Assembly (NCBI GenBank): GCA_965223705.1
Contig: OZ245015.1
Span: 1,664,001 to 1,728,000, forward strand
From: Myxococcota bacterium
GTDB taxonomy: Bacteria > Myxococcota_A > UBA9160 > UBA6930
Direction: 5' to 3'
Length of the DNA stretch: 64,000 nucleotides
Position 1 is the stretch's first letter. Every line of letters begins with the position of its first letter. The notes under the pieces were generated by a model. That model did not search any database. It saw only the letters and a program-made list of their open reading frames with translations, and had not been told where the DNA came from. A program made the translations under genes and the position numbers. Of this stretch, positions 3,988-23,663 are shown piece after piece.

Positions 3988-4064
3988 GGGGCGGTAGTTC
4001 AATTGGTTAGAGCACTGGCCTGTCACGCCAGAAGTTGCGGGTTCGAGTCCCGTCCGCCCCGCCA
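3988..4064 (+). tRNA. tRNA-Asp (GTC)
   Basis: Acceptor stem GGGGCGG/CCGCCCC, anticodon arm CTGGC-CT-GTC-AC-GCCAG, T-loop GTTCGAGTC, encoded G-CCA end; 77 nt. Confidence 0.98.
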
Positions 4065-4067
4065 TTT
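4042..4067 (+). repeat. att site, tRNA-proximal copy of a 26-bp direct repeat
   Basis: TTCGAGTCCCGTCCGCCCCGCCATTT, identical to 27120-27145. Confidence 0.95.
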
Positions 4068-4125: not shown

Positions 4126-7100
4126 TCACATGAAGAGCCGGTAGTCGTAGGCCCTGGTGCCGAACCGCTCGAGCAAAGAACCGATACGCGCGATCTGCCC
4201 GGACGATTCCACGGTTGCGGGTAGCTTCGTATACAGGTCGAAGGTATTCCAGTTCATCTTCGAGAGCCCCAGGATCTCCGAGCACGCGAGGTTGAGGTCG
4301 GACTTGCCGGCATGCCTCTTCAGGACTAACGGGGCGGGGATCCGCCGCTTGCCCTGGTAGTACTTGAAGCGGGGGTTGAGGGCCGTCGCGACCCCATGCA
4401 CCCAGAGGAGAGCTGTGTGCCCGTCGAGTCGGACCACGCTCCCTCGATCGACCGGGAAGTTGTCTTCGTCGAACTGCCCTCCGGGCTTCGCGATCGACGA
4501 TACGTACCGAAGCGCGGGGTCAATGTTGATCTCCAGCATGTCAACTTCGTCGATCCCGCCGAGGCCCTCCATCAAACCGTCGCGCTCGTCGCGCTGGAAA
4601 GGACTCCGCTTGTGGAGCACCACGCGCTCGGGGAGCCGCATCCTCGCCTCGTAGAACAACTGGCGAATGGTCTCCCCGACACGGCGCGCGTCGTCCCGGG
4701 ACAGGAATGGGTTCCCGCCACGGAAGATCGGATCCTCGACCTTGGTGAGCCTATATTGCAACCCCTCTCCGCGGGAGTTGTAGATGTGACTGCAACCCAA
4801 GACGACGTGGCGGCCGCGCTCTGAGTTTTGATCGATGCTGTAGCCGAGCCCCACGAACGCCGTGTTGCTATCGAGGACGTCGAGGACCCAGGGCGTTCGC
4901 ATGCTCTTCACGTAGAGCGCGAGGGATAGCCACCACCAGACCCGACACTGCTGGGGCTCGCGCAGCGTGTGTCCCTCGAGGAACTGCGTCGTGATTCCCC
5001 GCGGAACACAATAGGCCTTCACGAAATCGTGGACGTCGAATCGCTCGCTTTCGGTCCTGAACCGCTTCCACTGGTCAAGGCGATCTGGGACGTACACGAG
5101 CACGACGCTGGGGTCTGACGACGCCTGGATCGCATCCAACGCCTGGGTGATGCTCCGCGCCAGCTCGACAGACCCGGTTCGGGGATGGGTGCCCTGTCCT
5201 GGGACCGAGTACGAGCGCCAGCCCGGCGACCCCGGAGTTGGGAGTTCCAGCGGGAGGCTGAACGCGGCGTCGAAGCCAGGGAAGTCGAGCAGGTAGTCGC
5301 GTTCGTTGCTGAGGGGTGTGTGCCGCCGGTGTGACCGCTGGACGAACTCACTCAGCACCTGCGTCTCCGGTTCCGGGCAGATGACACCCAGCCGAACGCT
5401 CGGGGCGAGGCCGCGCTCCGTGATCGAGTAGTCATACGGCCGATTCTGGGCGACTCCGCGGATCGGGTGGAAATCTCGCACCGCGGTGGTGCCATCCTTG
5501 CTGGCGAAGATGAGCTGGGGCTCCTCCAGCTCGAAGCCGTGGTGCGCGACATGCCGAGCGACACTTTCGGGGATCCGTGCGGCCCCGCCTCCGGAGCGAG
5601 CGAGCAGGGCCGCGAAGATTGGGGTGCGTCGGATCTCGAACGTGAAGGGCGTCTGAGAGCCGGTGGGGTAGTGAAACTTCCTGCGCTTGTCCGAAAACAG
5701 TCGGCGTCGCCACCCCTCTACTGCGCGATTGAACTTGTTGTTGTGCTGCCAGCCGAGCACCGCCATGCGGACTCGGCGCTCCACCTCCTCAGGAGCCTCG
5801 CTCCCGTCCGCGGCTTTCACGGTGACGGAAGGTTTGACGACGAGGTACTGCTTGCCCCCGATGCGCCTCAGGTAGAGCACCGCGGAATTGTGAACCGACC
5901 ACTCGCGCTCGCCCTCCCACCGCTTCTCCTGAGGAGCGGGGTCCCAGAGTCGGGCGCGTCCGTCGGTTTCGAGGCCCGCGGTGCTCGCGATCGACCTCGC
6001 GAGAGCCCGCCTAAGCAACGACACGATGGTGCCGGTCTCCAGCCGAAGGTCGCTCTCTCCGATCGGCGTCCGCTCCACCGAACCCTTGATGAGCCCGTCG
6101 AAGGCCGCGCGAATCGAGTCGACGTCTCCCATACACGCAATTCGCCCTCGGAACGGAATGGCGACCAGGTCGTGGCCCTCTGTCTTCCCTTCTACCCACG
6201 CCCACGCGCGCTCCTCCGGCCATTCCGTCGGTTCGAACTCGTAGACCTCCGACGGGCACCGGATCTCGAAGGCGTTGCTCTTGATCAGTGACCCCGCCCC
6301 CACTGGCTCGGCAGTGAAAGGCTCCCTCTCCTGCGCTTGCTCGATGGCTTCTACCGCCTTAACGCGGATTCCCTCGTTCGCTTCGCCATCCAGGCAGCGA
6401 AGCGCGAGGCGCGAGAGGAGATCGTCGAAGCCCTGCGTAGGAACTAGAAACGCGGAGCGCCCATTTCGACGAGCCGACTCGATCAGCTCCAGGACTCGCG
6501 GCGGGACATCTTCGTCTCCGTAGACGCACCAGTAGATGGCGCCGAGCCCAGGAGCGGAATAGGCCGCTTCGAGGGTGTCCATCACCGAGTCGTCGCGTCC
6601 GCTGTAGCCTGCGACGATGAGGGGCCGGTCCGTGATCCACTCCACGAGCGACGAGCGCAATTTCTCATCCTGGTGTTGAAGTTCTGATGGAGTGTTTCGA
6701 AGGTGGTCGTAGCGATAGTCGCCGTGGAGAGCGACACAAAGCAACTCCCCGGAGCGCACCCGACGCGGCAGTCGCCCGCGTGTGTCGAGCCCGACCTCGA
6801 TGGCAGAGAGGCTGAAGTCCGCGGCGGCTCGCACGGGGAGCTGGTCGAAGTTGGTACTCCACGCCGAGTCAACGATCCCAGCTTCTGCTAGCGCGCAGAG
6901 TGCCTTGTAACCGATGTGCGGGCGCGCCGGCTGTATCACCCTCTGGAACCAAGCGCGTCTGTCCTCGGTGACGGGGAAGCACTGCTCGATGTAGAACCCG
7001 TACTCCTCGGACGACTCCAGCACGGGGAACCCGCCGCGTCGATCCAGCCAGCGCTGGATCTCTTGGCGCACCGCGGGCAGCGAGAGCTCGGAGAACTGCG

Positions 7101-7287
7101 CCTCGAGGCCAGGGTTGTTACTCAGGAAGATTTCTCGCTTCCACTCCCAGACGCAGCGGTCCGCGGACGGAACGCCCGAGGTGATGGAGGTTCCAGCACC
7201 GAGGAAGAACGCGTGAGGCGTGTCGCGGTTTACCGCGACGGAGCGAACGAGCGCGTCGAGCGAGAGCGAGATCGCAGGTTCGTCCAC
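4126..7287 (-). CDS. SIR2-APAZ-short prokaryotic Argonaute fusion (single-chain SPARSA-type NADase defence protein)
   Basis: SIR2 motifs FLGAGTSITSGVP, STNFD, LHGDY, GYSGRD; MID motif HDFVK...TQ...YVK; PIWI C-terminus LSKMNWNT...LPATV...YDYRLFM; no DEDX tetrad (GLG where D is expected). AGGAGG lies 9 nt before GTG 7287; the ORF is open to 7308. Confidence 0.93.
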   Translation of the reverse strand: MDEPAISLSLDALVRSVAVNRDTPHAFFLGAGTSITSGVPSADRCVWEWKREIFLSNNPGLEAQFSELSLPAVRQEIQRWLDRRGGFPVLESSEEYGFYIEQCFPVTEDRRAWFQRVIQPARPHIGYKALCALAEAGIVDSAWSTNFDQLPVRAAADFSLSAIEVGLDTRGRLPRRVRSGELLCVALHGDYRYDHLRNTPSELQHQDEKLRSSLVEWITDRPLIVAGYSGRDDSVMDTLEAAYSAPGLGAIYWCVYGDEDVPPRVLELIESARRNGRSAFLVPTQGFDDLLSRLALRCLDGEANEGIRVKAVEAIEQAQEREPFTAEPVGAGSLIKSNAFEIRCPSEVYEFEPTEWPEERAWAWVEGKTEGHDLVAIPFRGRIACMGDVDSIRAAFDGLIKGSVERTPIGESDLRLETGTIVSLLRRALARSIASTAGLETDGRARLWDPAPQEKRWEGEREWSVHNSAVLYLRRIGGKQYLVVKPSVTVKAADGSEAPEEVERRVRMAVLGWQHNNKFNRAVEGWRRRLFSDKRRKFHYPTGSQTPFTFEIRRTPIFAALLARSGGGAARIPESVARHVAHHGFELEEPQLIFASKDGTTAVRDFHPIRGVAQNRPYDYSITERGLAPSVRLGVICPEPETQVLSEFVQRSHRRHTPLSNERDYLLDFPGFDAAFSLPLELPTPGSPGWRSYSVPGQGTHPRTGSVELARSITQALDAIQASSDPSVVLVYVPDRLDQWKRFRTESERFDVHDFVKAYCVPRGITTQFLEGHTLREPQQCRVWWWLSLALYVKSMRTPWVLDVLDSNTAFVGLGYSIDQNSERGRHVVLGCSHIYNSRGEGLQYRLTKVEDPIFRGGNPFLSRDDARRVGETIRQLFYEARMRLPERVVLHKRSPFQRDERDGLMEGLGGIDEVDMLEINIDPALRYVSSIAKPGGQFDEDNFPVDRGSVVRLDGHTALLWVHGVATALNPRFKYYQGKRRIPAPLVLKRHAGKSDLNLACSEILGLSKMNWNTFDLYTKLPATVESSGQIARIGSLLERFGTRAYDYRLFM

Positions 7288-7483
7288 GGATCGAATCCTC
7301 CTGACCACCGGCGACGGGTGCCGGCACGGTTTGGAGTTCTAGGCTCGGAGGACGACCCGAGGGGGGAGTTCAGGCCAAACAGCTAGTCTACCGAACGGGG
7401 TACGCCGACGACATCCAGCCTCCCGCGAGGTGCGTCGCAGGCACCCCCGGTCGTCCCTGTATCGTCCTTCCTAACACGAGCAA

Positions 7484-9034
7484 TTACTCCGCCCCAACGT
7501 CGTCAAGTAGGCGGTGCAGATCGCGCACCTTTTCGGTGAGCGTCTCGATCTGATCGCCGAAGGCCTTGCGCATGATCTCGGCTCTCTTGAGGATCTTCTC
7601 GCTGCCGCTCTTGATCGTTTCCGCTGAGCGGGTCACCTCGTCGAGGCCGCGCGCCTGCTTCTCGATCTCAAGGATGGCGCGCTCGATCGCATCGAAGTCG
7701 GCCGCTTCGGCATCGCTGCGCGCACGTCCGCGTGCGCAGAGCGCCCGCGCTACCGACACGCCAGCGACGAGGACCACGTCGCTTCGGGTATCCTCAGCAT
7801 CCCACACCAGAACGACATCGTTCCCGTAGCGTCCGAGAGGCTCGAGACCTTCAGGAGCACTACACGCCGAGAAGACGAAGAGCCCGACCGTCGCATCGCG
7901 GTTCTTGCGCGCTTCCTCAGCCTCAGCGAGAGCCTTCTGGAGGGTGTACGACGCGTCCTCCTTTGCTTCGGTTACGATCCGCGCCCCGGCCGCAGCGTGC
8001 TCGGGGCCGAGCTCGATAACTGCGTCTCCCTTCTTGCAGTTTTTGATTCGACCGGTGGTGTTGCCGGTGGGCGTGGCGATATCACCTGCTCTCTGGCTGA
8101 GGCTGTTGAGCTGCTCGAACACCGCATGTTCGAAGTCGTCGCCATGGCGCGTCGAGCGCGCGGCCTCCTGCTTTCGCGCGACCATCTCCGCGAGCTTCCC
8201 TAGCACCTCGCCGTGGAAACGCTCGTTCGCCTGCCGCTGGGTATCGATCACCTCGAGAAGCTCACGCTTCATGCGCGCGAGCGCGGAGCCCTCGTCGTCG
8301 AGGGAGAACTCGCTGCTGATTTGGTGCTGCGCCTGCTCGACGCGGCCCACCAGGCGCGAGAGTGCTGAGTCTTCTCGATCGAGCGAGAACTCAGCCATCA
8401 CCTCGCCGATCCGTTTTTCGAGCGCCTCGCTCACCTCGCCGTGGTGCTCAGCTAGCTCCACGACGAGGCGAGAGAGGGCGCCCTCCTTGTTGTCGAGGGA
8501 AAACTCGGAGAGGATCCGCTCGCGCTGCTCGCCCAGCGTCTTCTCCACGGAGACGGCCAGCGATCCGACGAGCCCCTCGGAAGCCTCGGGATCGAGGAGC
8601 TGCATGAGGGGGCTGTGTTCGCCCAAGTGGCCCGCGAGGGTCTGGGCCAGCTCCGATCCTTCGCTGCCGATCTGGCTGCGCAGCAGCCGCTCGAGCTCAC
8701 CGTCCCGCCGGATCAGGCGCTCGACCCGTTCGTTGAATCGGCCGCTTTTAGGATCGAAGTACCCCTTGAGGCAGGTCCCGATCTGCTCTGCGACGGTACG
8801 CTGGTGATGAGACAGCGCCTGGCCAAGGTTCTCGAGTAGGCGATCGCCTTCGGCGCGCACGCGCTCGGCGTCGATTCGGCCTTGCGCCTGGGTAAGCGCG
8901 AGCGCCCCGATCTTCATCGAGGCGATAGCGAAGTCGTGGCGCTCGCGGCCATCCGGATGGGGCTCGAGGGCGGCGCACAGGTCGCGGTCGGAGACGATGA
9001 GCTGGAGCTCGATGCTGTCGATATGGGCGCTCAT
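7484..9034 (-). CDS. Coiled-coil/internal-repeat protein with a C-terminal PD-(D/E)xK-like domain (RmuC/DUF2130-like architecture)
   Basis: RBS AGAAAGGA before ATG 9034; three EFSLDxxxxALxR repeats; HGDDFE...KGDAVI...VTEAKED. Confidence 0.7.
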   Translation of the reverse strand: MSAHIDSIELQLIVSDRDLCAALEPHPDGRERHDFAIASMKIGALALTQAQGRIDAERVRAEGDRLLENLGQALSHHQRTVAEQIGTCLKGYFDPKSGRFNERVERLIRRDGELERLLRSQIGSEGSELAQTLAGHLGEHSPLMQLLDPEASEGLVGSLAVSVEKTLGEQRERILSEFSLDNKEGALSRLVVELAEHHGEVSEALEKRIGEVMAEFSLDREDSALSRLVGRVEQAQHQISSEFSLDDEGSALARMKRELLEVIDTQRQANERFHGEVLGKLAEMVARKQEAARSTRHGDDFEHAVFEQLNSLSQRAGDIATPTGNTTGRIKNCKKGDAVIELGPEHAAAGARIVTEAKEDASYTLQKALAEAEEARKNRDATVGLFVFSACSAPEGLEPLGRYGNDVVLVWDAEDTRSDVVLVAGVSVARALCARGRARSDAEAADFDAIERAILEIEKQARGLDEVTRSAETIKSGSEKILKRAEIMRKAFGDQIETLTEKVRDLHRLLDDVGAE

Positions 9035-9067
9035 GGTGGTGTCCTTTCTCGTTCTCGCCCGAGAATT

Positions 9068-9083
9068 TGCAATGCCTGTGCCA
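9068..9083 (-). promoter_or_regulatory. sigma54 (-24/-12) promoter
   Basis: Minus strand TGGCAC-AGGCA-TTGCA, an exact TGGCAC-N5-TTGCW match ~35 nt upstream of the 9034 start. Confidence 0.85.
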
Positions 9084-9202
9084 CCCAACGCGCCTGTCCG
9101 GAGCGTAGAGAAAATCGCTTTTAATATGGTTAGTTATGAGATTGCCGGATCCTCGCGGCCACTCAAACTATCGACCCGGTCACCCGATATCTTGTTGGAT
9201 AA

Positions 9203-9216
9203 ATAAGATTTCTTAT
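9203..9216. promoter_or_regulatory. Candidate upstream activating sequence (palindrome)
   Basis: ATAAGA-TT-TCTTAT in an AT-rich patch ~120 bp upstream of the sigma54 promoter, flanked by two GATATC sites. Confidence 0.55.
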
Positions 9217-9471
9217 GAAATAGATATCGTCGCAGTCGTCGGCGACAGTCACGCGCGTCCCCAGCCAGCTTCGCGCCCCGGCTGCCCAAGCGACGGAGCA
9301 GTCCGAACGAGTCGGAACGACGATCTCGTACTTGGGCCGGGGGCGCGCGTGGCCCGAGGGTCGGTCTGTCGATGCCCTGGTCGTACCTTCGATGAGGCCA
9401 GAGTCGAATGGGGATCTCAATGACCTCGGCTAGCGGAGAAACCGCATAGCGAGGGCGGACATTGGCATCGG

Positions 9472-10368
9472 CTAGATGGCCTTGGTGATACGGAACCCGT
9501 CCGCGAACCGGAGCGCCGTTCCCTCACGCACGTCACGCAGGCGACGAGTCCAGATTTCATCCTCGAGTATCCGGATATCCGTCGTCGAGCCCCGCTCCTC
9601 GCTGAGGCCATAGTCAATCGCGATTCCCCCACGTTCCGTCAGGATATACCGAGCGTGGGCTCGTTCCCCTCGCGGCAGGCGATCCCAGCGCAGAATCTCT
9701 AGCTCGATCGACCCAGGCAGAACCGAAAGAAGGGCCTCTTCGCAGTCTTGCCGGAACTCTTCCTTGAGCCTGCGATCTGCCCTCGTGTGGAACTGGCAGA
9801 CCGTTAGATCTGCAGCCCGTGGCTCTACGATCCCCAGCAGGGCACAGAGAACTGCTACCCGGTCTGGAGCTTGGGGCTCAAAATACGGATCCACGAAATA
9901 GAGCTCGCGGCTGACTCGAAGTAGGCCCCCAGCACACTGAGCGATCGCCCTGGCCTCTCGCGGGACGACTGCGCCACGATCGACCTTCCAACGCCCATCC
10001 TCTGGATGCCAGTCGTCGGTGAGAACGCGACGAGAGCCAGCTGGGTTCGTGCTAGCGATGATCGCTCTGAAGGGCTGGCGCTTGTCCTCAGCAATGGCGT
10101 TACTGATCCACTCCTCTTCTTCGGACCACCGTTGACATGGGCGATCGACGAGCAGCGAACTAATGCGCTTCGCAATTTCTACCGCCCGTATCCGATCGAG
10201 CTCGCTCAGCCTGCTCAGATGCGGCTTGACGCATTCCTTCCAGTCATCGGGGAATCGCGCCACGAAACGACCGGCATCGGGACCAAAGGCGTCCCAGAAG
10301 TACCGGAACTCCTTTGGGTGCGACCAAACGGCCATCAGTTCAGGCTCGACTGCAAACTCGGAGTGCAT
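9472..10368 (-). CDS. Hypothetical protein with a putative PLD-like (DPY...HxR) nuclease domain
   Basis: FVDPYF and HARYILTERGGIAIDYGL motifs; starts 3 nt after the ATPase stop. Confidence 0.6.
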   Translation of the reverse strand: MHSEFAVEPELMAVWSHPKEFRYFWDAFGPDAGRFVARFPDDWKECVKPHLSRLSELDRIRAVEIAKRISSLLVDRPCQRWSEEEEWISNAIAEDKRQPFRAIIASTNPAGSRRVLTDDWHPEDGRWKVDRGAVVPREARAIAQCAGGLLRVSRELYFVDPYFEPQAPDRVAVLCALLGIVEPRAADLTVCQFHTRADRRLKEEFRQDCEEALLSVLPGSIELEILRWDRLPRGERAHARYILTERGGIAIDYGLSEERGSTTDIRILEDEIWTRRLRDVREGTALRFADGFRITKAI

Positions 10369-10371
10369 TGC

Positions 10372-11943
10372 TCAGAAGAGTTCCTTAACCCGCTCTTCGA
10401 AGAACCCTTGCGGCCAGCGATCGACGAATTCGCCGCGATCGCTGATGGCCAATGGCGTCACCCGGACCTCTCCCTCCTCCTGCTCTACAAATAAAACGGA
10501 AAGCTGATTCGCAGCCAGGCGGGGCCGACCCGGCTCGACCTCGCCCCGATGCGTCTCTTGGATTCTTCTTAGCAGTCGAAGCATCAAGTGCTCACTGTGC
10601 GTTTCAAGGATGCAAATGCCGCTTCGTGCCGTTGCTCTCCACGCGAACAAGTCCCCGAGCTCCACCTGAACGCTCGGATGAACGTGGAGTTCCGGCTGCT
10701 CTATCGCGATCACACGCGGGGAGGCTTCTCCGTCAGAATCAGTCGCTGCGACAATCACTGGAACAACCTGCGAAATTCCGATTCCAACATCCGTCGGAGC
10801 AACAGGCAACTGCCGCTCGAGATCAACCACAACGACGCGCCTGTGGGTAGGCAACCGATTCAGCGCTTCAGAGATCGCCTCAGCGTCATCGATCAGAGCA
10901 CGTGATCGAAGCGATGCCATAAGGAAGCTCTCGAGAGGGAGCTCTTTATACTCTTCAATTCGAACAGCGCTACCCGAGCCGATCCGATCCAGCCATCGGT
11001 TCACCTGCAAGACAAAAGTGTCGTCGGCTCCGATGAGCCGGTCCCAGGCAGCGAGTCCGGTGGACCACCTTGATATATCCGGCGTTAGCGGTGCTGAGTA
11101 TCCCCTCGGCGGCGTCTCGCGGATCGGCCCCAGGTACCGCAGCGAGGCCAGCTCCGAACGCAACATCCCGCCGAGGCCTGCGAAGAACGCCGTCAAGCGA
11201 TAGATCAGGCTCCCGCCTCTGTACGGCTCAACTACTTCAACTCCGTCGAAGTCCAGCCAAAGAGCATCATCCCAAAGGGGAACCGCAGACGAGTGCATCT
11301 CGGGACATTCGAACCGGTCAAACTCGGCGAGGTCATCATAGAACTCCTGAATGGCCTCATCAGTCTCCTCTGAACGAGAGTTTCCTACGACTCGATTCCA
11401 GTTGTACCGGAGAAGAGGATGCGAGAAGTTCAGGCCGCACAGATCGACCCTTTGTCCGTCTGCTGCGACACGTAGTTCGCCTACTGATTCACCGTTTACC
11501 TCGAGTGCAAATCCGGTGACTGTCGATCGCTCCAACCGGTCGTGCCAACCGATCGTCAGCTCTACACAGAACTCCTGGACCTGCTTGTAGAGCTCATTGT
11601 TGTAGTCTCGAAGCTCGACCCACCGATGAGGCTCGCGGGTTCGTTCAGGAATGTCATTGCCCTGCGGATCGACACAGAAGCGGATCACTACGTCCCGCTC
11701 CTCCTTCTCCCTCAGATGGACAAGACTCTCGAAACCTCCAAGATCCACAAAGGGGCCACCGACCTCAGTTGTGTCTGGATCAGAATTCCGATGCTCTAGA
11801 ATCTCTCGCGCGTAGTGCAGTGAGTGGAGCACCGAGCTCTTGCCGGCGCTGTTGGGGCCGAAGAGAAGCGTTAGCGGCTTGAGGTCGACGCGCGTCCGGC
11901 TCCCTACGCCCTTGAAATTCTCAATCTCAACCGCAACAAGCAT
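10372..11943 (-). CDS. ABC-type ATPase (AAA_15/AAA_21-like) with a DUF3696-like C-terminus
   Basis: Walker A GPNSAGKS, signature VGIGISQ, Walker B IEQPELHVHP, H-loop ETHSEH, C-terminal WPQGFFEE; ATG overlaps the hsdS stop. Confidence 0.88.
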   Translation of the reverse strand: MLVAVEIENFKGVGSRTRVDLKPLTLLFGPNSAGKSSVLHSLHYAREILEHRNSDPDTTEVGGPFVDLGGFESLVHLREKEERDVVIRFCVDPQGNDIPERTREPHRWVELRDYNNELYKQVQEFCVELTIGWHDRLERSTVTGFALEVNGESVGELRVAADGQRVDLCGLNFSHPLLRYNWNRVVGNSRSEETDEAIQEFYDDLAEFDRFECPEMHSSAVPLWDDALWLDFDGVEVVEPYRGGSLIYRLTAFFAGLGGMLRSELASLRYLGPIRETPPRGYSAPLTPDISRWSTGLAAWDRLIGADDTFVLQVNRWLDRIGSGSAVRIEEYKELPLESFLMASLRSRALIDDAEAISEALNRLPTHRRVVVVDLERQLPVAPTDVGIGISQVVPVIVAATDSDGEASPRVIAIEQPELHVHPSVQVELGDLFAWRATARSGICILETHSEHLMLRLLRRIQETHRGEVEPGRPRLAANQLSVLFVEQEEGEVRVTPLAISDRGEFVDRWPQGFFEERVKELF

Positions 11944-13127
11944 CAGAGCTTGTCCCGGAAGGCACGTTGAGAGAGACTTTCGAAGAGAGGTTCTTGGGCC
12001 GAATCCCGCAGCTGAGCTTCCAACGCCCGAACGGTTTCGATAGAACGACAGAACTGCTCCTGAACCTCTAACGGCGGAAGAACTATCGGTGTTCCTCGCA
12101 GCGAAGCGAGATCCAGACGCTTTGTGCCGTGAGCTGCAGTAGAGATGCGCGCCAGCAGGAACCCCGACATTGCCCTAAGCGTCCAGAGCAGAAACTCTGG
12201 CATTGCTCGATCGGATGGACGCACCGCCTTTAGATCCTGGTTGATCGTCAGGGGCGCACAAGACAAGGCAACTGGCATCGTATGCGCCAAGATCATCCCC
12301 CGGACAACAATCAGCACTGCACCGGGCGCAACAATTTGCACTCGTCCCTGGGCAACGGCCGCCTCACTGATATGGTCCTGCGCATCCTCCAGGTAGGCGC
12401 ACTTCATATCCTTTGGCGACACCCACGGAATCCGCCCACCCCAGAAACTCGGCTCCTGTTTCGATGGCGTAGCCCCGCTCGATATGCTGGTCTCATCTCC
12501 GATCGTTGAAGCTGGCCAGCCTCGATCGTTAGTCACAGGATCACCGAACAGCTCAGAGTAAATTGCGAGCGGGAGGTCTTCGCTGAGAGCGATGGCTTCG
12601 TGGTGTTTCCGGCGGATCGCATCAGCCTTATCAAGAAGAGACACAATCCGGTCCTGCTCCGGTCTTGGCGGCACTGGGACTTCGGTGCTGGCCACGCTCC
12701 TCGTGTTGAGGGTCATTCGCGTCGAACCTTTTGTCTGAGCTAACGAAGCTCGCTGACCGTCGGCCGAGTTGAGATAGCGGGCCAGGAACTCCGGAGTTAC
12801 GTCTCGAAGGCCCTTGATCGCTATCAGGCCAGCGCAGTTGGCTTGGCCAAGGTCTTCCGGGATCACAGCGGCGGTCCCCGACTTGCCGATCCTCACGACC
12901 ACTACGTCACCCGGGGATAGTTGAGATTTTCGCTCTGAAGCGTGGAATTCCCGCGAGACGAACTCCAAGTCCTCTAGCTCGAGCCCATTGGCCCTCACGT
13001 TCTTCCCCATCAGGAACGGGATCCCTTCGGGAACTCGATGCTCTTTGCTCGGGCCGACATGGCCTACGACCACTCGATCGCAAATATCAGCGATCTGCGC
13101 CGTCCGCCACGATTCGGGGGCCCTCAC
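11943..13127 (-). CDS. hsdS: Type I restriction-modification specificity subunit
   Basis: Two TRD halves each ending in PVPP/LPPL-EQ conserved helices; SGATPSK...IPWVSPKDM; follows hsdM. Confidence 0.93.
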
Positions 13128-14704
13128 GATCCAGTCTCGCTGTTCTTCGAGAGGAGTTCCCGGAGGCTATCGAGTTCACGAACGATGCCCGACTCCAGCG
13201 CGCGGATCTTACCGATGATCTGAATCGGAGTTTCGTAGTCCGGCTCTTCATAGACCGTCTCCCTGTATCGCGCGACGGAAAGATCGAAATCGTTCTTAGC
13301 GATCGTCGATCGATCAACAAAGAACGCCTTACCAGTGCGATCCGTATCCTTCTTTGGGTCGCGCTCGATCCAACGCTGGAGGCAATCCGGCAGGTCGTTT
13401 GCGTTGACAGGCTCCCGCTTGTCATCCAAAGAACGGCCATCAGCCTCCAAGTCATAGAAGAAGACATCGGCAGTCTTGCCGCCGCGCGTAAAAACCAAGA
13501 TCGCCGTCGACACACCGGCATAGGGCCTGAAGACGCCGGACGGGAGTGAGACCACCGCCTCGAGCTGATTCTCCTCAACTAGCAGCTTTCGGATTGCAAG
13601 ATGCGCCTTTGAGCTACCGAACAGGACCCCATCCGGCACCACCACGGCTGCGCGCCCACCGGGGTCTTTCAACATGCGGAGCGTAAGCGCCAGAAAGAGG
13701 AGCTCAGTCTTCTTCGTCTTGACCTTGCCAGTAAGGGTCGGATCAACATCCTCCGCGTCGAGGCTGCCCTTGAAGGGTGGGTTGGCCAGAATCACGTCAA
13801 AGTGATCGTCTGCGAGCTCCGGTCGATTCTCGCGGAAACCGCGACTAAGCGTATCCTGGTAGTAGATATGGGGATTCGAGACATCATGGAGCATCAGGTT
13901 CATCGCCGCGATGCGCAGCATGGTTACGTCGAAGTCGAAGCCGTAGAACATCCCCTTCTGGATGTGGTCACGGTAGGGCTCGAGGAGATCGCCCGTGTAC
14001 ACCATCTGAGGTTCGCCGTCGTCACCAAGAACAGACTCCCCCTCCTCATCCTCAGCTGGGAACTGGCCCTCCTCTGACGAGTAGTTTCTCAGTAGGTACT
14101 GCATCGTCTGGACAAGGAAACCGGCTGTTCCCGCCGCGGGATCGCCTACTATCTCGGTAGGCTTCGGATCCACCAGCGACACCATCAAGTCGATGATGTG
14201 TCGGGGGGTCCGAAACTGGCCGTTGATGCCCGCTGTTGTGAGCTTGCTGAGAAGGTACTCGTAGAGGTCGCCCTTTGTGTCGCCCTCCCCTAGCGGCAGC
14301 TCGTCGATCAGCTTGATGGCCGCGTAAAGCAGGCTCGGCTTCGAGATGATGAGCTGGGCGTCCTTCATGTACTCGCCGAGGCGATTCTGTTTCTCCGCGA
14401 CGGCCCGGATGTGCGGGAAGAGCTCGTCGCGGACGACGGCGAGCATGCGCTCGGCGTCCCCGTCGTGCTTGAGCTTTGACCAGCGCAGGCGCTGAGTGTC
14501 CGGGCCGAAGAGATGGCCGGGGAACGGTTCGCCTCGGTTCTTGCGCGTGAAGACTCGCTCGTCGCGCGTCTCCCGGATGTCGAGCAGGCGGGCGAACATC
14601 AGGAAGGAGATCTGCTCAATGACCGTGAGCGGGTTGGTGATGCCCCCCGTCCAGAACTGCTCCCAGAGTTTGTCGATCTGACTGCGTAGCTTGCCGGTGA
14701 TCAT
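13124..14704 (-). CDS. hsdM: Type I restriction-modification N6-adenine methyltransferase
   Basis: [36 protein letters not shown]. Confidence 0.97.
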
Positions 14705-17700
14705 GAGTACATGCCCTCGGGACCGGGTTCGGTCGGGGTGGGTTCGGGGTTCGCGCCGGGCTCCGGGCTCTCGAAGCTGGCGATGAGACCGAGCAGCTGG
14801 TCGATCTGGGCCTCGTCGCCGAAGAGCCCGTCGATTCCGTCGGGGTCGAGCGACGTGAACGGCGGCTCGTAGAGCCGCTCGAGCTCGATCGCCCCCGCGC
14901 TCGCGATAAGGCTCTTGAGCAAGCTCAGGAAGCGCACTTGCCGGGCATTCAGCGCAGGGTGCTGATGGACAAAGGCTTCGAAGCGCTTCTCGACAGCCTC
15001 ACCGTCGAGCCCAATCACGCGGCGAATCGCCAGATCGAGGTGCCCTGCGGTCTTCGGGTAAAGCTGCTCGAGCTTGGCGAGGTCGACGTCGGGGTTCTGG
15101 GTGAGGACGAGGCTCACGAGTTCGTCCAGGTCCTGCCGGCCGACGGGGCGGCCGGCCTTGATCTTCCGCAACGTCTCGTTGCTGGCCAGAAGGTCGCGCA
15201 GTACCTGTTCGACCCGCTTGCGCCAGCCCACCAGGTCGAGGCCCTCTATCTTGACTGTGTGCTCGCCCTCGCGCACGAGCATCGGGTCTTCGGCCACGTC
15301 TACCACGTGGGCATAATCGGCGGGGCTGACCAGGCGCTCGCGGTACTTCATGATGGCCCGCAGCTCGCGCCGGACTTCCTCGAGCGCCGCGAAGTTCGGA
15401 GCGTCCCAGAATTCGACACCTTTCACCTGTGCGATCGCATCTGCCTTGGCCTTGACCTGGGCGAGGTTCATCTTGAGCTGGGAGAGGGCATTCAGAAGGT
15501 CGCCCTTCAGATCCTGAAATTCGCTCGCCTCAGCGATTCGAGCCCGCTGGAGGCGGGTCATCAAGAGATCGAACTCGTGGGCTTCCACATGGCCGCGGAT
15601 GTCCCGCTCCTTCATGAGGGGCGCTACCTCTTGGAGCAGGGCCGCCTTGGTGGCCGGGTCGAACTGCTTCAGGATCTGGGTGTCGCCCACTTTCTTCAGC
15701 GTCCGCCAGGCGTCACGCACGGCGATCGTCCCTGAGTCCTCGAGACTTGCTATGTCCTGCCGTAGCAGTTCAACCACCAACTCGAATGTAGGTAGCTCGG
15801 GTTTACGGAGCGCGGCTTCGGCGAGCTCCACGCGGTTCTCAAACAGCTGATGGAGGAGCGACTTGCGAGGCGAGGGCGTTGGTTCGACGTAGGTCTGGCC
15901 GAAGAACTCGAAGTTGCCCCAGTGATCGAAGACCAGAAACTCCTTCTTGTGCTCGCCGTAGCCAAAGAGATTCTCGCACTTGCGAGTGCCGCGACCGATC
16001 ATCTGCCAGAACTTGACATAGGACTTCACGGGTTTGGCGAACACAAGGTTTACGACCTCCGGGACGTCGATGCCTGTGTCGAGCATGTCGACCGAGATGG
16101 CGATCTGGATGTCGTTGTGCTGGCCCTGTCCCTTGAAATCGTCAATTAGTTGCTCTGCACGCGGATCGTAGTTGTCGATGACCGTGCAGAAGCTGCCTCC
16201 GTAGTGCGGGTAGAGTTCGTCGAAAAGCTCCTTCAGAAGGACGGCGTGGCGGTGGCTGCGCGCGAAGACGATCGACTTCCCTGGCACCTGGCCGCTTACG
16301 TCGCGGATGCCGTTATTGATCAGGTTGCGCAGCATCTCGCGGTTCGTGTCCTTGTTGAAGATGAAGCGGTCGAGTTCGGCGGCCTCGTAGTCAAAGCTCT
16401 CAGCATTCGAAATCTGTTTTTCGAGCTGTGCCCGCTGCGCCTCATTCATCTGTGCCCACTTCATTCCCTTGCGCTGGAAGCCGGTTTGAAATGTGCGAAC
16501 GTGAAGCGGGACGAGGACCCCGTCATCAATGGCGCGGTCCAACGGATACGAGGCCGTCGGGTCTTGGTCCTCGCAGCCGAAGAGATCGTAGGTGTTGCGA
16601 TCGATGAAGCGCACCGGCGTCGCCGTGAGCCCGACTTGGAGCGCGTCGAAGTAGTCGAAGAGATCCTTGTAGCGGTTGTAGATGCTGCGGTGAGATTCGT
16701 CCGCGATCACCAGATCGAAAAAGCCCACGTCGAAGCTCTCGAAGCAACTCTTCATCGCCGGATAGGTGGCGAAGTAGATTTGGTGCTCCCGCTCCTGGGC
16801 AGTTTTGGCCGTCACCGCAACTCGCTTGGCGTTCGGGAGGAGCTGCTTGAAGGCGTTCAATGCCTGCTTGCGGAGCTCGCGCCGGTCGCATAGGAAGAGA
16901 ATGCGTTTAGCGCGATTGGCTCGAAGGAGCACGTCAGCGAGCGAGATGGCCACTCGGGTCTTGCCAGTGCCCGTTGCCTGGACGATCAGCGCCTTCCGGC
17001 GCCCCTGGTCGAAGCGCTCGCCCACACGCTTCACGGCCTCCACCTGGTAGAGGCGGCCGGCGATCTCGTCGCTGATCGGCACTTCCTCGAGTCGGGCCCG
17101 CTCGCCGCGCTGGAAGTGGAGATAGGCGAGGCTGTCCTTTGAGTAGAAGCCGTACAGCTTGCGATCGACCTCGTTCTGGGCGTCATCCCAGAGGTAGAGG
17201 TCGAAGCCGTTGGTGTAGAAGATGACCGGGCGCTGTCCGTACATCCGCTCGAGGCCGTCGGCGTAGAGCCGGGCTTGGTACCGGCCCTGGACGGCCTCGA
17301 TTGAGGTCTTTTTTACCTCAACGACAGCCAGCGGCTTTTCCGCATCGTCCCAGAGCACATAGTCCGCCCGACCCTTGCCGCTCTCCGTCGGCTGGTAGTC
17401 GACCTCGACCTCTTGGCCCACCTGGGCCGTGTTCTTACCCGCTTCCCCAACCACCCATCCAGCGGAAACCAGCATGGTTTCGACGAGGAACTTCCTGGTG
17501 TCGGACTCATTAAAGGAGAGCTCGCTCGCGGCCCGCTGACCGGACTCGACAATGATCTGAAGCTCTTGTGCGGTCTTCTCTGCGTCCTCGGCCTTCGCAC
17601 GCGCAGCGTCCAGCTCCGTCAGGATTCTCTCCATCTGCGCTTCCTGGGCGGCGAGCTTCTCAAGCGCAGCCGTTTTCTCTCGCTTAAGCTCGGCCTTGGT

Positions 17701-18207
17701 CACGCCAGCCGCGCCCCCCGACGGGGGCAGTGTGAACTTCGGGCAATCGCTCTGCGCACCCTTGTCCACCGCCATGTGGAGCCAGCTGCCGAGGTGATAG
17801 ACCTCGCTTAGCGCCCGGCGCGCCATATCGAAGTTGACGGCGCCGCCGTGGGCCGCCTTGTTCCCAAGTTTCCGGACAGCGTGAATCTTGGTCAGCACCA
17901 CCTGGGGCACCGAGTCCTTGAAGGGCTGACCGTCGAGGAGCGTGAAGAAGTCAGCGTCATAGGGCTGAGAGAGACCCAGCACCACGTAGAGGTCGTTCGT
18001 CATCGCCTCTGCGAAAGTGCGGAGCTTGATCAGCGCGCTCGCCGGGTCGGGGTGCAGGTATTGCTCGGCGAAGCCACCGAGATCAGCCAGGTAGGTGCGC
18101 TTGTTGCGGAGGAACTCGAAATTGACGGATTTCACCACGGCGGCTTTCTCCCGGAGATCCGCGAGGTCCCCAAACGGGCCAGCTGTGTGCGTTTCCTCGG
18201 CTGACAT
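14701..18207 (-). CDS. hsdR: Type I restriction endonuclease R subunit (EcoAI/EcoEI-like, DUF4145-like N-terminus)
   Basis: Nuclease ADYVL...VEVKK; Walker [36 protein letters not shown] before ATG 18207. Confidence 0.96.
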
Positions 18208-18258
18208 TTGCACTCTCCCACAGCGCATGGAGCCATACCCCCGTCGGTCGAGTGTTTG

Positions 18259-18274
18259 AGCAAGGCGCGTGCCA
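18259..18274 (-). promoter_or_regulatory. sigma54 (-24/-12) promoter for the hsdRMS operon
   Basis: Minus strand TGGCAC-GCGCC-TTGCT, directly after the activator stop codon and ~50 nt before hsdR. Confidence 0.85.
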
Positions 18275-19798
18275 TCATCGCGTCCCGGCTTTCTTGGGGG
18301 CGTTAACGCCGTATTTTCCCATCCAGTTCGTGAGGGTTTGGTAGCTAGGCAGCCCTACCAGCTCGGCCGCCTTCGTCTTATTCCCATCAGCCTCGCCGAG
18401 GGCCCGCTCAAGGTAGTGCTTGGCCAATTCTGCCATCAAATCAGGTAGTTGCAGCTCTTTTCCAAGCGGGCGACCGAGAAGGTCCGTAGTCTTGCCCTGA
18501 ATCGGTTGGAGGAGCTCCTCGCGGACGTCCTCCACCCCAATTTTGGCACCGGGCGTCCAGAGCACGAGCCGATCCATGGTGGCCTGCATCTCGCGGACGT
18601 TCCCAGACCATTCGTGTCGAAGCAGAAGATTTCTTGCTTGAGGAGAAAGGGTCTTCTGCTCAAAAGTGGGTTGGTCGGCAAACTTCTCGTTGGCAGCGGC
18701 AAGAAAGTGGTCGAGGAGTGGAGTTAGGTCGCCCTGACGCTCCCGCAGAGGGGGCAATCGGATGACGCCGGACGCCAGCCGGAAGTAGAGGTCCTCCCGG
18801 AAGGTGCCCCCTGCCACTTCAGCCCTCAGCTTGCGGTTGGTGGCGGCGATGATTCGAACGTCAACCTTCACGGGGTTACTGCCGCCAACTCGCCGGATCT
18901 CCCGTTCCTGGAGTGCACGCAGGATCTTCGCCTGGGCCGCGAGCGGGAGCTCGCCGATCTCGTCCAGAAATAGTGTCCCGCCAGCCGCGGCCTCGAAGTG
19001 ACCAACGTGGCGTTTGTCGGCGCCGGAGAACGCGCCTTTCTCGTGACCGAACAGTAGAGACTCGACTAGGCCCTCTGGCAGCGCCCCACAGTTCACGTCT
19101 TCGAATGGCTTCTCAGAGCGGCGGCTGGCCGCGTGGATTGCCCGAGCGAAAAGTTCCTTGCCCGTGCCCGATTCACCCTCGATGAGGACGGTCGTATCGT
19201 GAGGCGCGACTCGTCGGGCTCGAGCAATCGCGCGGCTGAGCGCCGGACTGCGTCCGACGATCTGGGCGAACTCGGGGGCCTCTGGGGGTAGGCCCGCGGT
19301 CAGGCGTTCGAGTTTCTCGTCCGTGCGGCGAAGGGCGCGCGGAACGTACTCGGCTGCGAGGTCGAACGGGAATGCGACGCCGCGCACGCCACGCTCAACG
19401 CTCGACTGGATCAGCTCCGCAGGGAATCGCGTCTTCGCGAGCAGAATCCAAGCCGCCTGCATCGACGGGGTGCCCGGGCTGATGTGGGCCGCTAAGTCTG
19501 CTTCTTTACCGAACTCCGCGTGTGTGAACTCGATCGCCCGCTCTACGGCCGCGACGATCTCGTGGAAGTCCGTCGGGTCGTCGAGTGTTTCGATTCTCAG
19601 GTGGATCGGAGACCCGCCCCGATCTTCCAGCCATTCTGAGTACTCGCGACTCTCGCCCTCGTCGTAGTTCGACAAGAGGACAACTGCATCGAAGGTTCGA
19701 GCGTCGAGTACGCTCGCCGTCGGGCCCGCGCCCGGCCTCTTGCCCGTGGAGCAGTCGAGATCGGTCCGGCCGAGCCATGCGAGGAGGATCTTCGGCAC
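18275..19798 (-). CDS. sigma54-dependent activator with an N-terminal RtcR-like CARF domain
   Basis: N-terminal ILLAWLGRTD...DPTDF...HISPGTP; AAA+ GESGTGKE, GAFSGA, LFLDEIG, FREDLYFRL, WSGNVRE; C-terminal Fis-type HTH (GNKTKAAELVGL). GTG 19798 is the preferred start; the ORF is open to 19846. Confidence 0.9.
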   Translation of the reverse strand: MPKILLAWLGRTDLDCSTGKRPGAGPTASVLDARTFDAVVLLSNYDEGESREYSEWLEDRGGSPIHLRIETLDDPTDFHEIVAAVERAIEFTHAEFGKEADLAAHISPGTPSMQAAWILLAKTRFPAELIQSSVERGVRGVAFPFDLAAEYVPRALRRTDEKLERLTAGLPPEAPEFAQIVGRSPALSRAIARARRVAPHDTTVLIEGESGTGKELFARAIHAASRRSEKPFEDVNCGALPEGLVESLLFGHEKGAFSGADKRHVGHFEAAAGGTLFLDEIGELPLAAQAKILRALQEREIRRVGGSNPVKVDVRIIAATNRKLRAEVAGGTFREDLYFRLASGVIRLPPLRERQGDLTPLLDHFLAAANEKFADQPTFEQKTLSPQARNLLLRHEWSGNVREMQATMDRLVLWTPGAKIGVEDVREELLQPIQGKTTDLLGRPLGKELQLPDLMAELAKHYLERALGEADGNKTKAAELVGLPSYQTLTNWMGKYGVNAPKKAGTR

Positions 19799-20181
19799 AG
19801 TCGAAGCATAAGAAAATTTGCGCTCGGCTCCACTTTCGTACCTCAACCAGCAGGGCCGGCACGAGCCGGGCTGGCAACACGCAAGAATGGCGCGCTGCGC
19901 TTGGTCAACACGAGCCCGGCCCTCCCGGGAGAGCGACGCGGGTACGCGCCTCTCGGTAGTTCGCGAGACCGCCTCGCCCCGAGCATGGAAGCCGGATCTT
20001 CCCAGCTCCAGCAGCGACGACCTCGTCCCTGGGACTGTACTTGCCGCCTGTTTTCAATCCGTTGCGAACTCTGACGACAATCGCGATTTCCACGACATGA
20101 ATGGTGAGAATCCGGCAAGGGTTTCGCACCGGTGGCGATTCTCTTGGCTGGGAGACGCCGCAGGCGGGACACTCAGGCCGA

Positions 20182-20855
20182 ATGCCGCTCCGAAACATCT
20201 TCGATCAATACGACCAGAACGAAAACCGCCTTACGCACGCGCTGTGCTGTGCTCTTGTTGAGGACGACAGCTCCTTCGCGCGTTTCTGCTGGACTTCGCA
20301 GATCGAAGGGTGTCAACGCGCGTCGATCTCGAAGTCGAAGAGCAGTCAATCCCTGGGGAGGTCGCGCCACCGGGTGACGAAGAAGATCAGCGGCGCGGCC
20401 TACCCGACGCTTGGATCCACTCGAACCATGACTGGGCCGTGCTCGTAGAGAGTAAGGTCACCGCACCCGTCGAGGTCGATCAACTTCGACATCACCACAA
20501 CATGGCTCGCCGTCAGGCTACCAAGAGGGCACCTGGTGCCGCACCTTGGTTTATCGGACTACAGCGTCGCTATCCAAGCCAGCACTCTGTCCCAATCGTC
20601 GACGCACGGTTTGAATTCGATCTGCGAACGCTGGTCCGCGATCATGAGAGTTCCGTCAAGACCCAGCCGATCTTTCTTCAGGCCGCCTACTCGGCAATAC
20701 AGAATCGCGCACCGAACTTTCAGGCTGGGGTCGGACTCAAATTGTCTTATCGATACTGCCCAGCCACATCCTCGCCCGAAGCGTTAGGGCTCGTTGCGGA
20801 TGCTTGGCTCGCATGTAGGCCACTCATCGATCTGCTCCTGAACCCTGAGAAGTAG
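20182..20855 (+). pseudogene. Frameshifted PD-(D/E)xK-like nuclease gene
   Basis: MPLRNIFDQYDQNENRLTHAL in one frame continues as LLRAFLLDF...GLPDAWI...LVESKV in another; consistent with a 1-nt loss near 20270. Confidence 0.62.
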
Positions 20856-20864
20856 GATTTGCGT

Positions 20865-21644
20865 ATGGAAGCGATTGGACTCGATGTTGGCTTCTCTGCT
20901 ACCCGACCCAGTTCTGGGGTCGCGCGATTCTCTTCCGACGGGATCCTGCGAGTAGGTCATGCGACTTCCGACTGGGCAAGCCGCAGCGCAGTCGCCGGTG
21001 AGGAGGCCGTACAGGTTGCAGCGATTGACGCCCCTTACACGAGAATCGCAGAAAGTGAGCCTCGGGCATGCGAGCGAGTCTTTACGCTCGGGCCCTTCGG
21101 CGGCCGATGCAAACCCGGATTGTCCCATGTCCCCGGCACGGGACGCGAACTCCGAAGAGCAGGGTGGGAGACCGCGCAACAGCTCAAGCCACTCGCGCCA
21201 AGCGAGCCTCTTCGTGTTCAGTTTCCACGTATCGAAGACTGCAACGTTGTGGAGGCGTTTCCGAACGCGTATCTCGGAGTGTGCGTGCCGTCCAGTATCT
21301 ATGACACGAAGCCGCCGCTACGACGGGGGAAGAAGTTCGACTGGCTCTACGAACGATGGGTTGACTCGGGACTCTTCCATCGAGCTGCTCGGGAAGCGGG
21401 ATTGCCTGATAGCGTGGCTGAGCTGTGCGATTCGAACACTCAACACGACGAGCGCGCCGCGCTCGTTTGTTTGCTGACCGCGAGTGGTGTTTTCCTCGGT
21501 CGCTACACCGCTGTCGGAGACCCCGCCGGTGGGTACTTCTTTCTACCAGCGTTCGAACTCTGGGCCGACTGGGCGAGAGAAGCGATCGAACGTCAGAGCG
21601 TTCGCGTGCCCGAAATCGAAGTTTGGAAAGACGGCACGCGATAA
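20865..21644 (+). CDS. DUF429-family predicted RNase H-fold nuclease
   Basis: IGLDVGF, AAIDAP, VVEAFPN, HDERAALVC motifs. Confidence 0.75.
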   Translation: MEAIGLDVGFSATRPSSGVARFSSDGILRVGHATSDWASRSAVAGEEAVQVAAIDAPYTRIAESEPRACERVFTLGPFGGRCKPGLSHVPGTGRELRRAGWETAQQLKPLAPSEPLRVQFPRIEDCNVVEAFPNAYLGVCVPSSIYDTKPPLRRGKKFDWLYERWVDSGLFHRAAREAGLPDSVAELCDSNTQHDERAALVCLLTASGVFLGRYTAVGDPAGGYFFLPAFELWADWAREAIERQSVRVPEIEVWKDGTR

Positions 21645-23036: not shown

Positions 23037-23066
23037 AGACACGAAGGCGGGACGATCGGTCGATTG

Positions 23067-23521: not shown

Positions 23522-23663
23522 TTGGGGTGGATCGACGCACGGGCCCCGCCAGTTGAGCTCGGTAGCCGTCGGACGGCGGTGTCCCAGGGTTCAGGATGAA
23601 ATGAAGCCCACGCGAAGGAACAGCGGAACGAGAGTCGTCGGCCAGACGATCGAATCGCACAGG

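Follow-up and report, generated by a model that had tools for sequence, protein, structure and literature searches.

We analyzed a window of 64,000 nucleotides from the genome of a Myxococcota bacterium (GenBank assembly GCA_965223705.1, contig OZ245015.1, positions 1,664,001 to 1,728,000), in which eight minus-strand genes form one run from 19798 down to 4126 (positions in this text are those of the window). In the order of the run these genes code for an activator combining CARF, AAA+ and helix-turn-helix (HTH) domains, the HsdR, HsdM and HsdS subunits of a type I restriction-modification (R-M) system, an AAA_15/AAA_21/DUF3696 ATPase, a 298-aa protein, a 516-aa protein, and a fusion of SIR2, APAZ and short prokaryotic Argonaute (pAgo) modules. 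The whole locus lies within an island of about 23 kb. Sequence comparisons make it likely that this island carries a self-contained switch, which consists of the CARF-AAA+-HTH activator, a set of palindromic ACAAG-N4-CTTGT sites, and two sigma-54 promoters that would use the RpoN of the host.

The activator and the promoter behind its stop codon

The activator (18275-19798, minus strand, 507 aa) is of the RtcR_PspF2 type by PADLOC. The PADLOC model PDLC01995 (RtcR_PspF2--CARF_AAA_HTH) matches it from end to end (5.1e-189, residues 19-514, profile positions 2-480 of 481), and the CARF4, Csx1/Csm6 and CARF1 profiles detect residues 20-150 at 3e-8 to 4e-6. Pfam recognizes the domains Sigma54_activat, AAA_lid_14 and HTH_8, and the translation displays a Walker A motif (GESGTGKE), a GAFSGA loop and a Fis-type HTH. 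A profile search of solved structures recovered AAA+ domains only. These matches bear out the RtcR-like activator seen in the initial annotation and support its assignment as an enhancer-binding protein of the R-M-linked RtcR_PspF2 family. The possibility that it is RtcR proper was rejected. The NCBIfam RtcR equivalog NF038308 scores 348.1 bits against a cut-off of 650, and the match begins only at residue 87, indicating that the N-terminus diverges from that of RtcR. Furthermore, neither RtcB nor RTC (RtcA) was found with Pfam in the genome, which is 95.2% complete, so that the absence of rtcA and rtcB first noticed in the window extends to the genome as assembled. The genome does encode rpoN (Sigma54_DBD, 205 bits).

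Relatives were sought with the CARF domain alone; a search with the activator alignment, whose patterns came from the AAA+ core, gave generic sigma-54 activators. The CARF-part search yielded 422 proteins at E <= 1e-5, mostly of 501-507 aa, and this length makes the GTG at 19798 a better start codon than the TTG at 19846. A search of the PADLOC families over 61 relatives was likewise dominated by the AAA+ domain, with full-length matches only in genomes G000 and G031. The family is patchily distributed: 22 of the 401 genomes sampled from the phylum (this one included) have it, as do 5 of 350 from another class. Two loci, L193 with a frameshifted activator gene and L032 with no CARF match, were left out of the locus counts.

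To recognize sigma-54 boxes we required GG and GC 10 nt apart in TGGCAC-N5-TTGCW, together with a position upstream of a gene read from the same strand. Two exact matches to the pattern TGGCACNNNNNTTGCW are present in the window (18259-18274 and 9068-9083); both have this spacing and placement and are oriented along the gene run on the minus strand. Thus the two exact boxes reported at the outset are indeed there, and they make up two of the 20 in the genome (4,559,241 bp, both strands; about 0.28 per 64 kb). Shuffled versions of the window contain 0.02 matches on average, and none of 100 contained two. Two such rare boxes within a single 9-kb stretch, both pointing in the direction of the genes, are far from what chance would give. 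A simple consensus scan for sigma-70-like promoters between 4000 and 20400 found none, as against 2.5 in shuffles.

Promoter 1 is an exact -24/-12 box (TGGCACGCGCCTTGCT, 18259-18274, minus strand) that begins with the base immediately following the TGA of the activator gene and occupies the gap of 46 nt between this gene and hsdR. Transcription from it is expected to start near 18248. We surveyed its conservation in 20 related loci of the phylum plus the window, and a box with intact GG and GC and no more than two mismatches was found within -50 to +130 of the activator stop codon in 14 of these 21. When at most one mismatch is allowed, this interval holds 11 boxes against 0.04 expected, and the other 674 kb of two-strand sequence hold seven. 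Six of these seven outlying boxes precede genes: four face away from the activator start, one belongs to an internal helicase gene, and one is promoter 2 of the window. The seventh, a one-mismatch box (TGGCACCTGAGTAGCT, 21684-21699, minus strand), lies in an unannotated section of the island, upstream of the activator, and is not followed by any obvious gene. The box abuts the stop codon itself in six loci, with TGA running directly into TGGCAC (the window, L136, L139 and L148), TGGAAC (L140) or CGGCAC (L135). Three loci (L139, L143 and L147) have TGGCAC followed by an off-consensus -12 element after the activator. In the other class a box with at most one mismatch occurs in 4 of 5 loci, at +1, +2, +2 and +117, the fifth being a frameshifted gene that was left unscored. 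Promoter 1 is therefore conserved in most of the homologous loci and across two bacterial classes.

Contextual analysis of the related loci indicates that the genes downstream of the activator mostly belong to defense systems. In 11 of the 20 a gene of the hsdR type is directly downstream of the activator. Other loci have DruH/DruE of Druantia III (L143), HmaA/HmaB (L150), or a train coding for vWA, PP2C, kinase and MkoA-like proteins (L144 and L146) at this position.

Boxes also occur elsewhere in the neighborhoods of these activators. In genome G403 (L198, G403:C3:157000-164000, together with L148) an exact box (TGGCACGGCTCTTGCT) faces away from the activator, 82 nt before a CD-NTase-like gene, which is followed by genes for an E1-E2 (Cap2-like) protein, a SAVED-peptidase effector and a second cyclase. 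This CBASS operon is apparently under the same activator switch, and the G403 activator has a further exact box at its own stop codon, before a type I R-M system. In G407 (L199, G407:C56:37300-44300, together with L152) a DUF4145-type hsdR, hsdM and a gene for an NsnB-like ATPase diverge from the activator behind a one-mismatch box, and the box after the activator stop precedes small genes of no known family. In G185 (L140) an internal one-mismatch box (TGGCACGGCGCTGGCA, 7467-7452) is found deep in a defense train, where it precedes by 20 nt the ATG of the gene for a ResIII/DEAD helicase of 786 aa, suggesting that layouts with several promoters recur.

Candidate activator sites, the second promoter and its predicted nuclease

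A reading of the 260 nt 5' of each activator gene brought out a 14-bp palindrome, ACAAG-N4-CTTGT, that recurs, usually as two copies spaced by 20-21 bp, one near -50 and the other near -28 relative to the start codon. Scored at 8 or more matches out of 10, such sites precede the activator start in 15 of 27 loci; the 4,050 nt concerned contain 22 of them, where the remaining sequence of these loci would predict 0.83. Sites of this quality have a density of 0.116 per kb in the genome under study.

Promoter 2 of the window is the exact box TGGCACAGGCATTGCA (9068-9083, minus strand), located 34 nt before the ATG at 9034 of the gene for the 516-aa protein, with a ribosome-binding site (AAAGGA) in between. 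The longest open reading frame would start this gene at 9088 and swallow the box, and this start was rejected in favor of the ATG behind AAAGGA. Upstream of the box are two ACAAG-N4-CTTGT-like sites in tandem (9203-9216 and 9182-9195, 21 bp apart), which are candidate upstream activating sequences; measured upstream from the GG of the box to their centers, the distances are about 127 and 106 nt, as is usual for an enhancer. The box agrees at 15 of 16 positions with those before homologues of the 516-aa protein in metagenomic loci L230 and L234, and the entire promoter-2 region aligns with the regions between the activator and this gene in L230 and L233, through sites and box alike. This supports homology of promoter 2 and its tandem sites with the regulatory region by which the activator family is separated from the same nuclease family elsewhere. 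Both promoters thus have counterparts in homologous loci, as the regulon proposed in the initial annotation would lead one to expect.

The situation at promoter 1 is less direct. An ACAAG-N4-CTTGT-like site with 8 of 10 matches is present inside the activator gene (18624-18637), about 355 nt upstream of the promoter, and shares with the promoter-2 site the 10-mer AAGAAATCTT, of which the genome has 8 copies; a role for it at promoter 1 is inferred. A weaker remnant of 7 of 10 matches (19808-19821), 10-23 nt before the activator start codon, occupies the place of the tandem sites of the relatives; it is below the threshold and is kept as a lead only. The enhancer of promoter 1 would accordingly be the intragenic site or a more distant one. 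In the relatives, whose activator gene has the sites on its 5' side and the box on its 3' side, we deduce an unusual geometry in which the activator gene itself would be contained in an enhancer-promoter loop of about 1.6 kb. Two other candidate signals were discarded: the 9-mers shared between the promoter regions occur in about the number given by chance, leaving weight only to the motif obtained by locus comparison, and the palindrome TGGTAG-N10-CTACCA, which lies where the activator gene codes for the HTH, is not conserved in relatives.

The protein encoded behind promoter 2 (7484-9034, minus strand, 516 aa) is helical, with three EFSLDxxxSALSRL repeats and a long C-terminal helix, and is predicted to be a nuclease of the PD-(D/E)xK superfamily. 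It has no Pfam match, and a profile search of solved structures gave nothing. Its homologues are numerous (2625 among 8000 scored candidates), none of them with an informative name in its source, and a protein atlas search led to 'hypothetical protein' clusters only, with faint leads to Mrr_cat and DUF2130. Across 28 aligned sequences of the family D337, E356 and K358 (D...E-x-K) are invariant, and Mrr_cat is detectable in 10 of 28 relatives, though not in the protein of the window. The structural model has a mean predicted local distance difference test score (pLDDT) of 73 and a predicted template modeling score of 0.35, with an alpha/beta core that reaches 78-92 in blocks of ten residues over residues 301-430. 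Foldseek matches this core weakly to Bax1 (the best, at 5.2e-3), McrC, XisH, AgeI and Hjc, and none reaches 1e-3. The conserved motif carried on an alpha/beta core argues for a PD-(D/E)xK nuclease, as the model has it, while the fold matches are weak. The long helical region joined to such a core and the frequent occurrence in or beside type I R-M loci recall the coiled-coil nucleases of the RmuC/Mrr type and ShdA of Shield, which is mentioned in passages of Bell et al. 2024 (PMC11090510). The 516-aa protein is set apart from these by its lack of a Pfam match, its distinctive triple repeat and the restriction of Mrr_cat to a part of its relatives.

Members of the nuclease family are present in 13 of the 401 genomes of the phylum sample. 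A distant member (about 30% identity) is the divergent neighbor of the activator in G185 and twice in G194, with TGGCAC boxes in front. The gene maps of nuclease loci L172-L175 and L179 were left out, as antisense frames had been called in several GC-rich loci. A metagenomic survey of the nuclease covered 68 loci, 34 of them with an evaluable upstream region. A box about 125 nt before the nuclease start was found in 4 of the 34. In three of the four (L203, L230 and L234) the activator gene is divergent and followed by hsdR, and the fourth ends at the edge of its contig.

Other relatives of the nuclease are found in different company. In L251, L255, L256, L260, L266 and similar metagenomic loci, proteins of 25-36% identity are encoded inside type I R-M operons with the gene order ATPase, nuclease-like gene, hsdM, hsdS, hsdR, beside a gene for a DUF3696-type ATPase. 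Box-less homologues in L211 and L212 (metagenome) and L177 (G396) lie beside a gene for an NtrC-type AAA+ protein that matches the activator in its AAA+ part only, and going by this gene neighborhood the family may have a second kind of regulator in the NtrC-type protein. A further box-like sequence of the window, GGGCGGAGTAATTGCT (7477-7492), overlaps the nuclease stop codon in a placement like that of promoter 1; its -12 element is perfect and its -24 element poor, with three mismatches, and it is probably non-functional.

A number of observations weigh against a single switch operating at both promoters. At the threshold of 8 of 10 matches, 12 of the 27 loci have no ACAAG-N4-CTTGT site, and the upstream region of the activator in the window itself holds only the 7 of 10 remnant. 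Four of the 21 loci (L142, L149, L151 and L154) lack any box after the activator stop. Thirty of the 34 nuclease homologues with evaluable upstream regions, including the closer ones (44-73% identity), have neither a box nor an adjacent CARF activator, which implies that the nuclease family is not obligatorily under this control and is often free-standing. AAA+ profile matches point to about 20 further sigma-54 activators in the genome, any of which could in principle serve promoter 2. Finally, a silenced type I R-M system would endanger its host but for a basal level of expression, which is assumed.

Some of these facts would fit an arrangement in which only promoter 1 answers to the activator, promoter 2 belongs to some other activator or is a relic, and the nuclease and the SIR2-pAgo are independent cassettes at the tail of the island. 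Besides the AAA+ matches and the solitary, box-less homologues, the codon composition can be cited for it, as the G+C content at third codon positions (GC3) is 0.63-0.66 for hsdS, the ATPase gene and the gene for the 298-aa protein (9472-13127) against 0.72-0.81 for the rest of the run, suggesting that the operon is a mosaic. We nevertheless regard this arrangement as quite unlikely, given that promoter 2 is preceded by tandem sites of the activator family at a normal enhancer distance, that its region aligns with the intergenic regions flanking that family, and that every boxed nuclease locus that can be evaluated has the activator (3 of 3, in addition to G185 and G194). We read the layout with the nuclease on one side of the activator and restriction on the other as ancestral: the nuclease gene and its box face away from the shared sites, and the activator gene runs from these sites to a second box that leads into restriction. 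From this we infer that a nuclease cassette, complete with sites and box, moved to the tail of the restriction operon in the present island.

The restriction operon, the Argonaute fusion and the island

Behind promoter 1 the type I R-M set is complete, with HsdR, HsdM and HsdS all intact. The hsdR gene (14701-18228, minus strand) encodes a protein with an N-terminal DUF4145 domain besides ResIII, EcoEI_R_C and HSDR_N (all by Pfam), and matches PADLOC REase_I PDLC03047 at 1.3e-290; an alternative start is the ATG at 18207, behind GGGAGAG. It is followed on the same strand by hsdM (13124-14704; Pfam N6_Mtase and HsdM_N; PADLOC MTase_I, 4.9e-171) and hsdS (11943-13127; Pfam Methylase_S; PADLOC Specificity_I). 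No terminator-like site was found between the activator gene and hsdR by a consensus scan, which makes a basal level of read-through into hsdR probable.

Two accessory genes of the same strand complete this operon. The first (10372-11943) encodes the ATPase, which is identified as AAA_15/AAA_21/DUF3696 by Pfam and has partial PADLOC matches to NsnB (3.8e-42), PDC-M55A and HEC-03B. Its identification as AriA of PARIS, GajA of Gabija or PtuA of Septu was rejected, as only the P-loop head or the tail matches those models. A gene for this ATPase likewise follows hsdS in L135, L141 and L138, and in L135 and L141 it is followed in turn by a homologue of the 298-aa protein, the partner of the ATPase in the window (9472-10368). 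For the 298-aa protein only 8 relatives were found at E <= 1e-3, itself included. A fold like that of phospholipase D (PLD) is predicted in its C-terminal half: the model has a pLDDT of 68, with 76-92 in blocks of ten residues over residues 131-230 and low confidence for the N-terminal 130 residues, and Foldseek returns 6 chains at E <= 1e-3 (PLD3 at 4.2e-4, BJ-TSA-9, MITD1 and a bacterial PLD among them), followed by SauUSI and BfiI. The catalytic motif of PLD enzymes is HxK(x)4D. The alignment of the 298-aa family lacks this motif and has instead an invariant H238-x-R240, within HARYILTERGG. Four residues on, the protein of the window has E and its relatives have D or E. As H-x-R stands in the place of H-x-K, a nuclease activity of this protein is plausible from the model and remains a guess. 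A terminator-like hairpin on the minus strand (9228-9247; consensus scan), situated between these genes and the promoter-2 region, may end the first operon.

One alternative is that the switch, rather than sensing infection, is a controller of establishment or maintenance, comparable in its role to the C proteins of type II R-M systems, that times or limits restriction after entry of the island into a new host, with basal read-through sufficing for everyday work. The integrase and attachment (att) repeats that bound the island, the co-directional placement of the activator and hsdR with no terminator between them, and the overlap of the tandem sites in relatives with the activator's own upstream region, suggestive of autoregulation, could all be taken in its favor. 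Yet hsdR is the first gene of the operon, so that the promoter cannot favor the methylase over the nuclease, and the same switch heads systems without a methylase, such as Druantia III, the MkoA-like train and the CBASS of G403. Moreover, CARF domains are ligand sensors in every characterized case, according to the relevant passages of Makarova et al. 2014 (PMC4012209). An establishment controller thus appears very improbable to us.

The last gene of the run (4126-7287, minus strand, in an open reading frame that extends to 7308) encodes the fused SIR2-APAZ-short pAgo, with a GTG start at 7287 behind AGGAGG. It matches PADLOC pAgo PDLC02384 (residues 14-1060) and Aga_SIR2-PNTD1-PNTD2 (2e-197), both over the full length, as well as Pfam SIR2_2, and is of the SPARSA type, the clade of single-chain SIR2-APAZ-short pAgos. 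Its place behind a nuclease gene predicted to be driven by sigma-54 sets it apart from SPARSA as known. The initial annotation had counted it as a possible member of the regulon; what speaks for membership has turned out to be adjacency. It starts 196 nt past the nuclease gene, and no box with two or fewer mismatches precedes it. SIR2/pAgo homologues occur in 7 of the 401 genomes, this one included, and none of the other 6 has the activator, which is another point that does not favor a common regulon; the only other fused homologue, in G088, also has no box. It is accordingly probable, if by a narrow margin, that the SIR2-pAgo is a passenger with a promoter of its own that escapes recognition and is not coupled in transcription to the switch. 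On the other hand, the gene lies on the same strand as the nuclease gene, and a consensus scan of the gap between the two revealed no terminator-like or sigma-70-like site. Read-through from promoter 2 into the SIR2-pAgo gene is conceivable on these grounds, although it falls somewhat short of probable.

The limits of the island can be read from the sequence. A tRNA-Asp gene (3988-4064, plus strand) is the site of integration, and a 26-bp copy of its 3' end (4042-4067) constitutes the left direct repeat. The right direct repeat, also of 26 bp (27120-27145), adjoins a gene for a tyrosine integrase (25622-26890, minus strand). By the sequence of these elements, the integrase and att repeats as its bounds, the island is a mobile one. 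Its remaining cargo, between the activator and the integrase (19900-25600), consists of about 10 open reading frames without any Pfam match. Close to the island but outside it (44-2685) are genes for a protein with an Hpt domain and for a response regulator that combines PAS, GGDEF and EAL domains.

Mode of action, precedents and significance

Taken together with the behavior expected of its domains, the arrangement would work as follows. Binding of a ligand to the CARF domain would release the AAA+ ring, and the activator would assemble on its sites and use ATP to open closed sigma-54 complexes at both boxes. Promoter 1 would then raise expression of hsdR-hsdM-hsdS, the DUF3696 ATPase and the PLD-like protein, and promoter 2 that of the EFSLD-repeat PD-(D/E)xK nuclease. 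Read-through from the activator promoter into hsdR probably supplies the basal methylase that protects the chromosome, so that sigma-54 would add an inducible boost. An RNA end with a 2',3'-cyclic phosphate is a doubtful candidate for the ligand; the initial annotation had invoked a nucleotide or damaged-RNA signal, for which the likeness to RtcR offers an analogy only. Of the inducible, multilayer regulon that it proposed, the two promoters are supported as far as sequences go, whereas the inclusion of the SIR2-pAgo and the nature of the signal are not supported.

A more far-reaching reading, which we put forward tentatively and consider rather speculative, is that the activator, the tandem sites and the stop-codon promoter, with the activator gene in the loop between them, form a portable switch whose ancestral partner is the nuclease, much as rtcBA is to RtcR. 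In the present island the nuclease cassette would have moved downstream together with its enhancer, and a single CARF signal would license restriction, the nuclease and, by read-through, the SIR2-Argonaute module of abortive infection.

RtcR of E. coli and Salmonella, the activator of rtcBA, is a CARF-AAA+-HTH protein that needs sigma-54, and its target is divergent in the classical locus. The activator of the window has the same architecture, and the divergent target is mirrored by the nuclease in G185, G194, L203, L230 and L234; it is distinguished from RtcR by its score (348 against 650 bits), by the failure to find rtcA or rtcB and by its putative targets, which are defense genes.

Proteins of this kind have been noticed before. 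In the passages devoted to them, Makarova et al. 2014 (PMC4012209) describe RtcR-like CARF-AAA-HTH proteins unlinked to Rtc and often located beside R-M genes, predict that a ligand produced upon infection and sensed through CARF triggers sigma-54-dependent activation of the downstream genes, and point out that most members of this branch are without the basic residue that follows strand 4 and that their ligand may be another one. The present activator belongs to the same protein family and has the same setting next to type I R-M, whereas those passages name no promoter, binding site or nuclease partner of the kind mapped here. Bell et al. 2024 (PMC11090510), in the parts that concern RtcR, place its homologues at the head of 'superoperons' with type I R-M, Druantia III and CoCoNuTs, propose an echeloned defense, expect the internal promoters to be independent of RtcR, and give RNA with a 2',3'-cyclic phosphate as the RtcR ligand. 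Here too an RtcR homologue stands at the 5' end of a same-strand defense train. There is no CoCoNuT (McrBC-type) in this train, however, and the internal promoter is itself of the sigma-54 type, as it is in G185; no promoter, binding site or nuclease partner is named in those parts either. In a preprint of 2025 (PMC12191111) RtcR genes are listed in a Pseudomonas defense island, without comment in the portion that lists them. Full-text searches of a literature collection found no experimental test of these regulators. The principle has thus already been predicted bioinformatically, as far as the cited passages go (Makarova et al. 2014, PMC4012209; Bell et al. 2024, PMC11090510), and the arrangement described here is new, with its promoters and sites mapped.

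Most known defense systems are thought to be constitutive or to be de-repressed by release of WYL-type repressors. A ligand-gated sigma-54 switch would instead leave costly or self-toxic systems unexpressed as long as there is no nucleotide or RNA signal. By comparison of loci the same switch is found before type I R-M, Druantia III, Hma, a Mokosh-like train and CBASS, so that results obtained on one of these would speak for many. The window offers a compact test bed in this regard, all parts of which are mapped to single bases: besides one activator it has two exact promoters, candidate enhancers in a defined pair and two or three layers of effectors. For a very large family of unnamed nucleases, with more than 2600 homologues, it provides a first approach to function. 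Should the tentative reading of a portable switch that licenses the SIR2-Argonaute by read-through prove true, this would be the first pAgo gated at the level of transcription.

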